A stretch of DNA of 10,615 nucleotides from Chlamydiota bacterium (GTDB lineage: Bacteria; Chlamydiota; Chlamydiia; Chlamydiales; SM23-39): assembly GCA_038534095.1 (NCBI GenBank), contig JBCAXK010000050.1, positions 1 through 10,615 on the forward strand. Direction: 5' to 3'. The notes below the pieces were generated by a model. That model was given only the letters and a program-made list of their open reading frames with translations. It had not been told where the DNA came from and searched no databases. Made by a program: the position numbers and the translations under genes. Positions 1,799 through 10,615 of the stretch are shown piece after piece. Each line of letters starts with the position of its first letter. Within the stretch, counting starts at the first letter, position 1.

Positions 1799-2944
1799 CT
1801 ATTCTCCGATAGGCGCCTTTGGAGAAAATTTACTACGAACGTTGTTTAACATTTTTTGTACAATTGCTGGGTCTACAGACTTTTCTCTAACTCCTTCCTC
1901 CAATGTTCCGGAGATGATCAACTCATCGCCTCGCGGATAGATTCCTACCCAAGTAGAAGTTTCATCAGAAACATTTTCGTAGGTCATATAGTCGATATTA
2001 TGGACGTTTTTAAAGAAGAGTATATGACCTCGTATTGGAAGAAACTCTTGATCGTTGAATAGTTTTTCTGCGCCAAAACTTGTGCAATTCACAACAATGG
2101 GTTCCTCTAAATCCAAGATATCTTCGATATTTTCAATATGACGTTCCACTATTGATGCGTTGAATAATTTGACTTTTGTAAAAAGATCCTTGATAAACTG
2201 TTTCCCATCAATGCTTAAAATTCTTTTGACGCTTCCTGTTTTTCGTAATCCATTATCAAATTGCACGACAATTTTCGGCTCTTGGTCCTTAAACTTTGGC
2301 TTGAAATACTTTAGTTGCTTGTAATCTGCATTTTTGAAAATGTAATCATCAATAAAGCCTACTCCCAAAAATTCTGGTTCCTCTGCAGTTGCGAGTTGTA
2401 AGTACCTTTTTCTCGATACTTCTAACATATACTTCAATGCTTGTTTTTTTTCTGAAGACTGGATGCTATTCAAGGATGGAGGACTCCATATGCCAATAGC
2501 AACATCTGAGGTAAGATTCGGAGAAAATTCCTTAGAGTAAATCGTGACATCATAGCCTAGTTTCAATAATTCATAAGCAGTTGATAAACCAATCACTCCA
2601 GCGCCAAGCACTGCGATCCTGTTTGCGTGCAATAAGGAAGGGTCTCTCATAAAAGCGCTAGATAGAAGATCTATTACTCTCTGCGCTCCTCCCCAACACA
2701 AAGTTACTCCTGATCCGCTATAGCCATAATTGTGAACAATCAGCTTATCACCGTAGTATTCTTCCTCTACGCGAGGACCCGATTTTCTATAAGGGCGAAT
2801 TCCCACCCTTGCTCCTAAAAAATTTTCATCACTCAAATCAGGAGTCTTAAGATGGATTTCTTTGGGGGAAGTAGTTTGTGGCTCACTCGCCTGCAAGCAT
2901 ATTGCAAACGAACAAATCATGGTAATTATTGCGCAGTAAAACAT
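1799..2944 (-). CDS. FAD-dependent oxidoreductase, D-amino-acid oxidase (DAO) family, circularly permuted, with predicted signal peptide
   Basis: Contains VGIRPYR (47-53), VHNYGYSGSGVTLCWG (70-85), Rossmann IAVLGAGVIG (110-119), TSDVA, IVVNCT, PIRGH and IYPRGDELIISGT. Hydrophobic N-terminus ending LQA. Confidence 0.9.
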   Translation of the reverse strand: MFYCAIITMICSFAICLQASEPQTTSPKEIHLKTPDLSDENFLGARVGIRPYRKSGPRVEEEYYGDKLIVHNYGYSGSGVTLCWGGAQRVIDLLSSAFMRDPSLLHANRIAVLGAGVIGLSTAYELLKLGYDVTIYSKEFSPNLTSDVAIGIWSPPSLNSIQSSEKKQALKYMLEVSRKRYLQLATAEEPEFLGVGFIDDYIFKNADYKQLKYFKPKFKDQEPKIVVQFDNGLRKTGSVKRILSIDGKQFIKDLFTKVKLFNASIVERHIENIEDILDLEEPIVVNCTSFGAEKLFNDQEFLPIRGHILFFKNVHNIDYMTYENVSDETSTWVGIYPRGDELIISGTLEEGVREKSVDPAIVQKMLNNVRSKFSPKAPIGE

Positions 2945-9204: not shown

Positions 9205-10251
9205 ATGAGTTTTTGTAACAGCATAAGAAAGTATTTCAAAGAGCCAGATTATCCATTGGTAGGTCCGTACATTCAGGAACCCAAATTCTTAATTACAAAA
9301 TGTTTTTTTACAAAAGTGGAAGAAACTGGAGCCAAGGCTTTACAGACATCTTCTGCAACTAGCTTACCCAAATGGGGCCGGGTCACTTGGATTCGCAATG
9401 GTTTGTTGCTGATTCCGGCTTTAGGCAATCTTGTTGTAAAAATCATCGATTTAATCTTGGGTTGCTTCTTCACTTCTTTGAAAGCAGACCCAACACAAAT
9501 CGTACCCATAAGCCCTGCATCAGAGCGCTCAAAAGCGGAATCCAAAACACAAAGCGTACCGATAAAGCCTCCTTCAGACTACCCAATAAAAAAGGTCAAA
9601 GATTTAATTATTCAAGCATTAAGTAATGATCAAATGCAGGTGTTAGACGATCTTTTAGAGATTTATGGAGACAAGCAGCTACCGAACGAACCCGAGGGAT
9701 GGTCGCTCATTGATTTTACTCTGAATGAAGCAGCATTGAGCGGAAAAATATCTCCAGTCGATCACCTGCTAAAAATCCATGGGCAAGAGCAATGGCCACA
9801 ACAACCGGCAGGATGCACGCGTGCTCAATACACTTTTAAAAAAGCTGCTGGTTATGGGCAAATACCCTTAGTTGACCACCTGATAACAATCTATGGGAAA
9901 ACACCATGGCCAGAAAAATCGTCAAGAGGGACTATGATTGATTATGCTATGGATGAAGCGGTACTTAGCGACCAAATAGCTTTAGTTGATCACCTTCTAA
10001 ACATTTACGGGGACGATGATCTACCGAACGAAGCCGAGGGGTGGAAGCGCCGTCATTACACTATTTGCGTAGCAACAGTTTACGAAAAAAGGGATTTGCT
10101 CGATCACCTGTTAAAAACCTATGGGGGCGAACCTTGCCCAGATAAAGCGATTGGAGAAACCTTGGTTGATTTTGCTTATGCTCATGCAAATAACAGCGGG
10201 CACACCGAATTGGCTGAGCATATAACCAATATGCATGGTTCACGCAGCTAA
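9205..10251 (+). CDS. Putative secreted effector with N-terminal hydrophobic motif and six ankyrin-like 38-aa repeats
   Basis: SD GGGAGG at 9193-9198 after a very AT-rich tract (about 9100-9190). IRNGLLLIPALGNLVVKIIDL at aa 63-83, a Pro/Ser/Lys linker, and repeats at aa 132-348. Confidence 0.85.
   Translation: MSFCNSIRKYFKEPDYPLVGPYIQEPKFLITKCFFTKVEETGAKALQTSSATSLPKWGRVTWIRNGLLLIPALGNLVVKIIDLILGCFFTSLKADPTQIVPISPASERSKAESKTQSVPIKPPSDYPIKKVKDLIIQALSNDQMQVLDDLLEIYGDKQLPNEPEGWSLIDFTLNEAALSGKISPVDHLLKIHGQEQWPQQPAGCTRAQYTFKKAAGYGQIPLVDHLITIYGKTPWPEKSSRGTMIDYAMDEAVLSDQIALVDHLLNIYGDDDLPNEAEGWKRRHYTICVATVYEKRDLLDHLLKTYGGEPCPDKAIGETLVDFAYAHANNSGHTELAEHITNMHGSRS
9598..10248 (+). repeat. Intragenic tandem repeat, 114-nt/38-aa unit, five full copies plus one partial
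   Basis: Units start at aa 132, 170, 208, 246, 284 and 322. Consensus approximately D[FY]xxxxAxxxGQxxLVDHLLxIYGxxxxPxxxxGxTxx. Confidence 0.9.
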
Positions 10252-10401
10252 GCAGTATCTGTTTATAAAAGCGAATAGGGGTGCCCCCTGAAAAAGCTCT
10301 TTAGAGTGAGTTGTGTTTGCCTGCAGGGCGTTTTCACTAAAAATTTTTGAGATTTTTTTATAGAAAATCATCGATAAAATTCCCTTAAGATAACCAGCTT
10401 C

Positions 10402-10610
10402 GAATAGGCTAGCTTGTGAGCGCGGAGGCTAATCTTCTTTTCAGATTGGTCGCAGCGGCGCTATGCACCGCCAGGGTGCAAATAGCCTAGATTCTCTGCT
10501 CTTTGTGCCTTTTTTTACCAGATGAGAGGTAAAGGAGGCCAGAACTGACGCATCAAAATTTTCATTGATTTTGTTATCCTCCTTGGGAAACCCCAAGGAG
10601 GATAAATGAA
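10402..10610 (+). promoter_or_regulatory. Structured 5' leader RNA, candidate translational riboswitch or attenuator
   Basis: Three-way junction at 10402-10494, hairpin at 10507-10539, and a perfect 14-bp hairpin at 10574-10605 containing the SD AAGGAGG. G-U pairs work only on the + strand. A -10-like TAAAAT lies at 10375-10380. Confidence 0.6.
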
Positions 10611-10615
10611 TTTCA
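10606..10615 (+). CDS. Probable start of a downstream gene (MNF...), truncated by the window edge
   Basis: AAGGAGG (10595-10601), then ATAA, then ATG AAT TTC. Only three codons are visible. Confidence 0.45.

Follow-up and report, generated by a model that had tools for sequence, protein, structure and literature searches.

At the right-hand end of the window, by which we mean the whole 10,615-nt stretch analyzed here, a perfect hairpin buries a strong Shine-Dalgarno sequence directly before an ATG, which raises the question of what this structure controls and by what means. The initial annotation took it to be part of a four-segment attenuator or riboswitch-like switch of the downstream gene, in which pairing of segment 1 with 2 and of 3 with 4 would mean off and pairing of 2 with 3 would mean on, and it offered a type I toxin mRNA as an alternative. 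The window is the whole of contig C50 (1-10615) of an 87-contig, 1.6-Mb genome, and the hairpin and the gene behind it consist of the following parts:

10574 to 10587, forward strand: 5' arm of the hairpin (anti-Shine-Dalgarno), TTATCCTCCTTGGG, placed by sequence, fold and inverted-repeat search
10588 to 10591, forward strand: hairpin loop AAAC, placed by sequence and fold
10592 to 10605, forward strand: 3' arm of the hairpin, CCCAAGGAGGATAA, containing the Shine-Dalgarno sequence AAGGAGG (10595 to 10601)
10606 to 10615, forward strand: first codons of the transposase ORF (ATG AAT TTC A...), truncated here because the contig stops; an identical copy on contig C16 continues it

The two arms form 14 of 14 Watson-Crick pairs (100% complementary, 4-nt gap in the inverted-repeat search), and a spacing of 4 nt separates the AAGGAGG at 10595-10601 from ATG 10606. 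Of the 8 inverted-repeat pairs in the whole 10,615-nt window, this is the sole perfect one of at least 12 nt, and simple arithmetic puts the chance expectation of a perfect 14-bp short-loop stem in 10.6 kb at about 1e-4. Folded in isolation the hairpin reaches -24.0 kcal/mol; it is present in both the minimum-free-energy and the centroid folds of 10385-10615 on both strands, and the fold of that region gave z values of -4.62 and -3.88 on the two strands, with 0 of 200 shuffles as stable. Sequence and folds thus confirm the perfect 14-bp stem that had been described as burying AAGGAGG before ATG 10606, and the complementarity by which TTCAT (10561-65) could also cover ATGAA (10606-10) is likewise present in the sequence. 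For modeled transcripts that start at or before 10574, the pairing probability of the Shine-Dalgarno sequence is 1.0, and for modeled starts at 10587 or 10590 it is 0.54-0.56.

Reading the hairpin as an intrinsic terminator fails, since no U-tract follows the 14-bp stem on either strand and the terminator scan lists no intrinsic terminator at 10574-10605, in agreement with the earlier remark that the structure is not a typical terminator.

The gene that begins at ATG 10606 can be followed beyond the contig end in the identical copy on C16 (30175-30325), where the ORF runs on for 50 codons. These first 50 codons match PF13808 (DDE_Tnp_1_assoc) with an E value of 1e-7 and, on what is only a fragment, a borderline score (32.4 bits, cut-off 32.3), while a middle piece of the transposase on C87 and a C-terminal piece on C32 match NF033564, "ISAs1 family transposase," with 136.1 and 86.5 bits, respectively (cut-off 70). 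Their closest homologue, P0001, matches the same profile with 313 bits, and the assembled pieces correspond to its residues 1-50, 89-255, and 262-373; the assembly holds no full-length copy, and a walk from C16 toward the full-length element found no contig overlapping its end. The middle piece has 92 homologues, most of them about 370-400 aa long and the best at 81% identity, with PF01609 in 92/92 and PF13808 also in 90. On these profile matches, the ORF starting at ATG 10606 is the gene of an ISAs1-family transposase; a real ORF follows the ATG, and no convergent gene ends to its right. An element of the ISAs1 family has a single ORF of about 370 aa that fills about 1.2 kb. In the copies on C32 (16935-16960) and C7 (52232-52260), the right terminal inverted repeat contains the TGA stop codon, and the ORF thus reaches into the right end of the element. 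A distant PF13808/ISAs1-like gene on the minus strand of C17 (29247-29852; 23% identity to P0001, one in-frame TAG) indicates that the genome has more than one ISAs1 lineage.

The identity of the gene speaks against both a type I toxin and a metabolic gene under riboswitch control. Type I toxin mRNAs typically sequester their Shine-Dalgarno sequence strongly, as this hairpin would, but the ORF encodes an ISAs1 transposase (NF033564, PF13808) and not a short hydrophobic peptide, and we give a toxin mRNA with a sequestered ribosome-binding site practically no chance of being the right reading.

The hairpin and the start of the gene lie within a repeat, whose parts in the window are as follows:

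10540 to 10615, forward strand: left end of an ISAs1-family insertion sequence, repeated at other contig ends and cut after 76 nt by the contig end
10540 to 10560, forward strand: left terminal inverted repeat of 21 bp, CAGAACTGACGCATCAAAATT, with a perfect inverted match at right ends
10530 to 10539, no strand assigned: presumed 10-bp target site of the window's copy, TAAAGGAGGC, in the flank outside the element and predicted from two other copies

The final 76-77 nt of the window are 100% identical (over 74-77 nt) in C59, C16, C38, and C45 and 99% identical in C31. These five left-end copies besides the window's own lie mostly at contig ends, the flank is different at each, and the sequence common to all begins exactly at 10540. 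The terminal repeat CAGAACTGACGCATCAAAATT recurs in inverted orientation at the right ends on C7 (52232..) and C32 (16936..), where the match extends to 24 nt with one mismatch, and both of the left and right ends that could be paired (2/2) are bordered by 10-bp target duplications, namely, CGCCCATCCC for C16-left with C32-right and GCATTCTACT for C38-left with C7-right. Elements of the ISAs1 family have terminal inverted repeats of 14-22 bp that start with CAG... and duplicate 8-10 bp of their target. For the copy in the window, no right end was found among the contigs of the genome, and a search for the left-end DNA in 40 related genomes gave a match in the window's own genome only. Taken together, the shared 76-nt repeat, the inverted repeats, and the target duplications identify 10540-10615 as the left end of a multicopy insertion sequence, inside which the contig breaks; the contig end is thereby explained as a break 76 nt into a repeat.

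Several more or less degraded forms of the element are scattered through the same genome. Decayed copies occur in C8, C17, C16 (16520), and C58, with weaker stems, at -14.0, -10.5, and -9.1 kcal/mol in three of them; a value of -2.6 kcal/mol for the C17 copy comes from a slice that is one base out of register. At C38:8672-8690, the terminal inverted repeat occurs alone, as a copy of 19-20 nt that no element follows. The remnant at C8:11490-11600 (L007 1501-1610) is miniature, consisting of the left inverted repeat, the leader hairpin (-14.0 kcal/mol), 8 codons, and then GCGTCAG, a motif that resembles the right inverted repeat; no clear target duplication was seen there, and the remnant looks like an internal-deletion derivative of the element. 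A compensatory double change that seemed to be present in the hairpin of this C8 copy was rejected, the changes being one G-U wobble and one C-A mismatch. In the decayed copy at C16:16520-16970, the ORF is frameshifted and the similarity stops near residue 126, and a second, unrelated repeat lies about 200 nt further on.

The same second repeat occupies 10331 to about 10500 of the window, where the ISAs1 copy follows shortly after it. Its sequence opens with (A)GGGCGTTTT(A/C)ACTAAAAATTTTTGA, and further copies are found at C16:~17140-17317 (minus strand), C23:~1871-1942 (minus strand), C1:75069-75120, and C5:43577-43600; on C1, two of its ends lie directly side by side as inverted repeats, in the manner of a miniature element. 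The copies on C50 and C16 have about 136 nt in common at 79% identity, and part of the sequence folds as a three-way junction. Neither transposase similarity (tblastn of P0001) nor an Rfam match was found in this second repeat. We also considered 10325-10460 as an old transposase remnant and rejected this, as tblastn of P0001 is empty there and the sequence belongs to this different repeat.

With the boundary of the element fixed at 10540, the proposed four-segment switch can be weighed. Its first two segments form one further structure:

10507 to 10539, forward strand: segments 1 and 2 of the proposed switch, a hairpin in the copy-specific flank (-12.0 kcal/mol), with unrelated sequence there in the other copies

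All four segments and their pairings do exist in the window's copy, including the second AAGGAGG (10532-38), which lies, as had been pointed out, within a hairpin formed by 10507-19 and 10528-39 (12 pairs including 2 G-U, 1 bulge, -12.0 kcal/mol). The element contains segments 3 and 4, but segments 1 and 2 fall outside it, in a flank that is unrelated in the five other left-end copies; the 1:2 and 2:3 pairings are therefore not part of the design of the element. Moreover, the second AAGGAGG falls within TAAAGGAGGC, the presumed target site of the window's insertion. The 2:3 helix had been recognized from the outset as weaker than the 3:4 helix, and the folds bear this out (-11.1 versus -24.0 kcal/mol), which leaves it unable to compete. 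A search of 10200-10615 gave no Rfam match at E values up to 1, and no DNA match of the region was found in 40 related genomes. Switching between 1:2 plus 3:4 and 2:3 is accordingly rejected as the logic of this leader, and we attach hardly any probability to it. Of the broader idea that the region is a regulated leader of the next gene, one part stands, since a real gene begins at ATG 10606 and translational control is very likely; the part that invoked four-segment switching is unsupported.

Whether the hairpin is peculiar to this copy or belongs to ISAs1 elements at large was judged from the upstream DNA of transposase relatives, taken from 80 genome-contig and 80 metagenome-contig loci from many phyla with 33-64% identity to the query. 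Three of the 80 genome-contig relatives, including those with the best E value and the highest identity, come from Chlamydiae MAGs. The start codon was set as the ATG nearest to the position expected from the protein alignment, a heuristic that is visibly wrong at, e.g., L112, L115, L116, and L143. Usable loci numbered 76 and 78, respectively, and removal of leaders at least 80% identical over 60 nt left 62 and 62, to which the window's element was added. The probability that positions -15 to -4 pair with upstream sequence was then compared with that in 100 mononucleotide shuffles of -60 to -17, with the following results:

Genome-contig leaders including the window's element: n = 63, of which 17 beat 95% of shuffles and 32 pair with a probability of at least 0.6
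Metagenome leaders: n = 62, of which 16 beat 95% of shuffles and 24 pair with a probability of at least 0.6
Both leader sets without the window's element: n = 124, of which 32 beat 95% of shuffles and 55 pair with a probability of at least 0.6
Ordinary long ORFs of the same genome with a Shine-Dalgarno-like motif: n = 110 drawn from 232, of which 4 beat 95% of shuffles and 22 pair with a probability of at least 0.6

The ISAs1 leaders differ from the ordinary genes with Fisher P values of 1e-6 (shuffle criterion) and 9e-5 (pairing criterion), to be read with the reservation that relatives are not independent. Pairing stays below 0.6 in 69/125 leaders, and the shuffle fraction is at least 0.5 in 35/125, which is partly due to the heuristic choice of start codons. 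A hairpin over the ribosome-binding site is thus a trait of the ISAs1 family that is enriched and not universal. In a copy from a Simkania MAG (L024), all 14/14 pairs are kept and the loop-closing G-C is changed to A-T on both sides. The E. coli K-12 gene ydcC (annotated as an H-repeat transposase) has arms CTCCTTA and TAAGGAG around a loop cataat, 7 nt before its ATG. Many leaders of relatives also show (C/T)AGGGC.AACGCATC..AAATT 80-95 nt before the ATG, an impression gained by eye among 76/80 loci and uncounted.

The sequences of the hairpin arms are unrelated between clades, and the 3' arm is always the Shine-Dalgarno sequence just before the start codon, a combination of free arms and constant cover that fits a role of the RNA in translation. 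The same observation bears on a role at the level of DNA, in which the subterminal palindrome would be (i) a binding site for the transposase or a host factor, (ii) a cruciform used in transposition, or (iii) a barrier to incoming transcription. That the palindrome is perfect and lies 34 nt from the tip of the element agrees with such a role, but the sequence is unconserved in relatives and yet invariably covers the Shine-Dalgarno sequence, the 353 nt of the right end on C32, inspected in part, showed no counterpart of the palindrome, and there is no U-tract and no terminator-like site listed. We therefore regard a DNA-level function as very improbable.

We conclude that the 14-bp hairpin is very likely a translational control element, and that the end of the window is probably the left end of an insertion sequence with a brake on translation, exerted by covering the ribosome-binding site of its transposase. 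That the hairpin blocks 30S binding is inferred by analogy with what has been shown for the IS200 stem-loop and proposed for ISPpu9; the fold itself and its repeated occurrence among ISAs1 leaders are established. In the RNA, the 5' arm (10574-87) would pair with the Shine-Dalgarno sequence and spacer (10592-605), so that transcripts containing both arms would load no ribosome at ATG 10606. Such a brake would hold transposase synthesis very low and, chiefly, would keep read-in transcription from neighboring genes from activating the element.

How the transposase would be made at all under this brake is a further matter, on which three proposals differ. One is that the brake is constitutive, as in IS200 or ISPpu9: the element's own mRNA would carry both arms, translation would always be strongly repressed, and the protein would come from rare translation or with a postulated helper, such as a stem-opening antisense RNA, a helicase, or a standby-site mechanism. 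This agrees with the behavior of IS200 (PMC4513863) and ISPpu9 (PMC8450116) and with the fact that no convincing internal promoter was found; in addition, because the arms read as a perfect palindrome in the DNA, a transcript of the opposite strand would have a loop complementary to that of the mRNA. At -24 kcal/mol, on the other hand, initiation should be nearly abolished, and yet the genome contains 5-6 (near-)identical copies. A relation between stem stability and translation initiation was reportedly worked out by de Smit and van Duin. The copies being presumably recent, it is difficult to see how they could have arisen if every transcript were blocked at -24 kcal/mol. The 34 nt before the 5' arm would also be too few for a complete internal promoter starting upstream of the arm, and no antisense RNA or helper was seen. 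Permanent repression of this kind appears to us rather unlikely.

The variant that we tentatively favor, while holding it to be far from secured, follows the logic of IS10 and IS50. A weak promoter of the element itself would overlap the 5' arm, so that its own mRNA would start near 10587, lack the 5' arm, and be translatable, and transcripts from outside alone would be silenced. The candidate is the following:

10572 to 10580, forward strand: hypothetical extended -10 element, TGTTATCCT, within the 5' arm, read from the sequence and from a promoter score of our own (8/13), with a predicted start near 10587

The tip of the element is separated from the 5' arm by 34 nt only. The candidate promoter has 4/6 matches plus TG at -10 and 3/6 at -35, judged against a sigma-70 consensus that may not hold across these phyla, and a promoter scan of 10200-10615 found no sigma-70 promoter. 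A search of RNA runs for the left end of the element gave no match. Among hairpin-bearing relatives with a promoter-like match scoring at least 8, 15/19 have their predicted start within the 5' arm or the loop, as compared with 30-33% of predicted starts in shuffles, and 0/200 shuffles reach 15, although here, too, the relatives are not independent; at a looser promoter threshold, the proportion is 23/44. The number of promoter-like matches in relatives (19 observed versus about 18-20 expected from shuffles) is that of chance and only their position is nonrandom, and this positional signal is confounded in that the complement of a Shine-Dalgarno sequence together with an A/T-rich spacer itself resembles TAnnnT. 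If the 5' arm nevertheless does contain a promoter, this arrangement may be the ancestral design of the whole ISAs1 family in many phyla, and the entire family would then run on the self-protection logic of IS10 and IS50.

In ydcC, the hairpin loop CATAAT (L186 6790-6816; NC_000913 about 1531789-1531815) matches the -10 consensus at 5/6 positions by eye, and a promoter in that loop would begin the mRNA inside or after the Shine-Dalgarno sequence.

The third proposal is a translation-coupled gate, by which transposase would be made only if ribosomes cross the stem: ribosomes coming from an upstream ORF, or from a host gene interrupted in frame, would melt the hairpin, stop at ATGA, and reinitiate. 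The upstream ORF in question is the following:

10565 to 10609, forward strand: hypothetical 14-codon upstream ORF (TTG ... TGA at 10607 to 10609), spanning the hairpin and overlapping the transposase start as ATGA

By eye, the +1 frame appears open from the tip of the element through the hairpin to the TGA that overlaps the ATG, and the Simkania copy L024 has the same upstream ORF; L024, however, is nearly identical here and hence not independent, and no Shine-Dalgarno sequence lies ahead of TTG 10565. Across the family, hairpin-bearing leaders are not enriched in either feature compared with other leaders, ATGA occurring in 23/56 versus 24/69 and upstream ORFs of at least 8 codons in 16/56 versus 21/69, for which reason family-wide coupling was rejected. 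For the element itself we consider such a gate improbable; were it true, the element would sense its insertion into expressed genes.

A structure that looked strikingly regulatory thus turns out to be ordinary transposon housekeeping: the hairpin is real and functional-looking, but ordinary, and belongs with those of IS10, IS50, IS200, and ISPpu9 to an established class of structures that restrain a transposase by covering its ribosome-binding site. For annotation, this means that perfect palindromes over a Shine-Dalgarno sequence at contig ends should be checked for insertion sequence ends before a switch is called.

In IS10 and IS50, the left-end inverted repeat pairs with the transposase initiation region, transcripts from outside go untranslated, and the element's own transcription start has been mapped between the two repeat units. 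Davis, Simons, and Kleckner are said to have described "fold-back inhibition" for IS10 (Tn10) in 1985, the structure of the IS50 (Tn5) read-through transcript was reportedly described by Krebs and Reznikoff in 1986 and Schulz and Reznikoff in 1991, and both are reportedly covered by Mahillon and Chandler in 1998. Like them, the element described here has a repeat upstream that can pair with the ribosome-binding site, with 14/14 pairs and a pairing probability of 1.0 for the Shine-Dalgarno sequence. It differs in that (i) those elements belong to IS4-type families and this one to ISAs1; (ii) a start between the repeats is mapped there and suggested here; (iii) the ISAs1 stem, with 14 perfect pairs and -24 kcal/mol, greatly exceeds theirs in strength; and (iv) the ISAs1 element is not known to be under antisense RNA or Dam control. 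Within the ISAs1 family, ydcC of E. coli K-12 shows the hairpin at the same position, with the 3' arm as the Shine-Dalgarno sequence before the ATG, but its stem has 7 bp as against the perfect 14 bp of the chlamydial element, the arm ends are unrelated, and its 114-nt leader is no better folded than shuffles (z -0.56). We found no description of ribosome-binding-site masking for ISAs1-family transposases in the searchable literature.

A parallel in function is the 5' untranslated region of IS200 tnpA, where a leader stem-loop buries a near-consensus Shine-Dalgarno sequence as a brake on transposase translation; sequestration is shown there by mutation and toeprinting, and mutations in the stem raise ribosome binding and expression (PMC4513863). 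IS200 differs in being a Y1 (HUH) element that lacks terminal inverted repeats, in carrying the stem-loop within its own transcript (start about nt 40), and in further controls by an antisense sRNA, by Hfq, and by a distinct terminator hairpin, none of which was seen for the ISAs1 element. In ISPpu9, of the IS110 family, a leader secondary structure likewise covers the transposase ribosome-binding site (PMC8450116); the family is another one, and the structure there needs the antisense sRNA Asr9 to open it and so activate expression, an RNA of a kind not known for the ISAs1 element. To this class the present analysis adds a very strong case, a stem of 14 perfect pairs in the genome of an uncultured chlamydia, together with a controlled count for the masking of ISAs1 ribosome-binding sites across many phyla.
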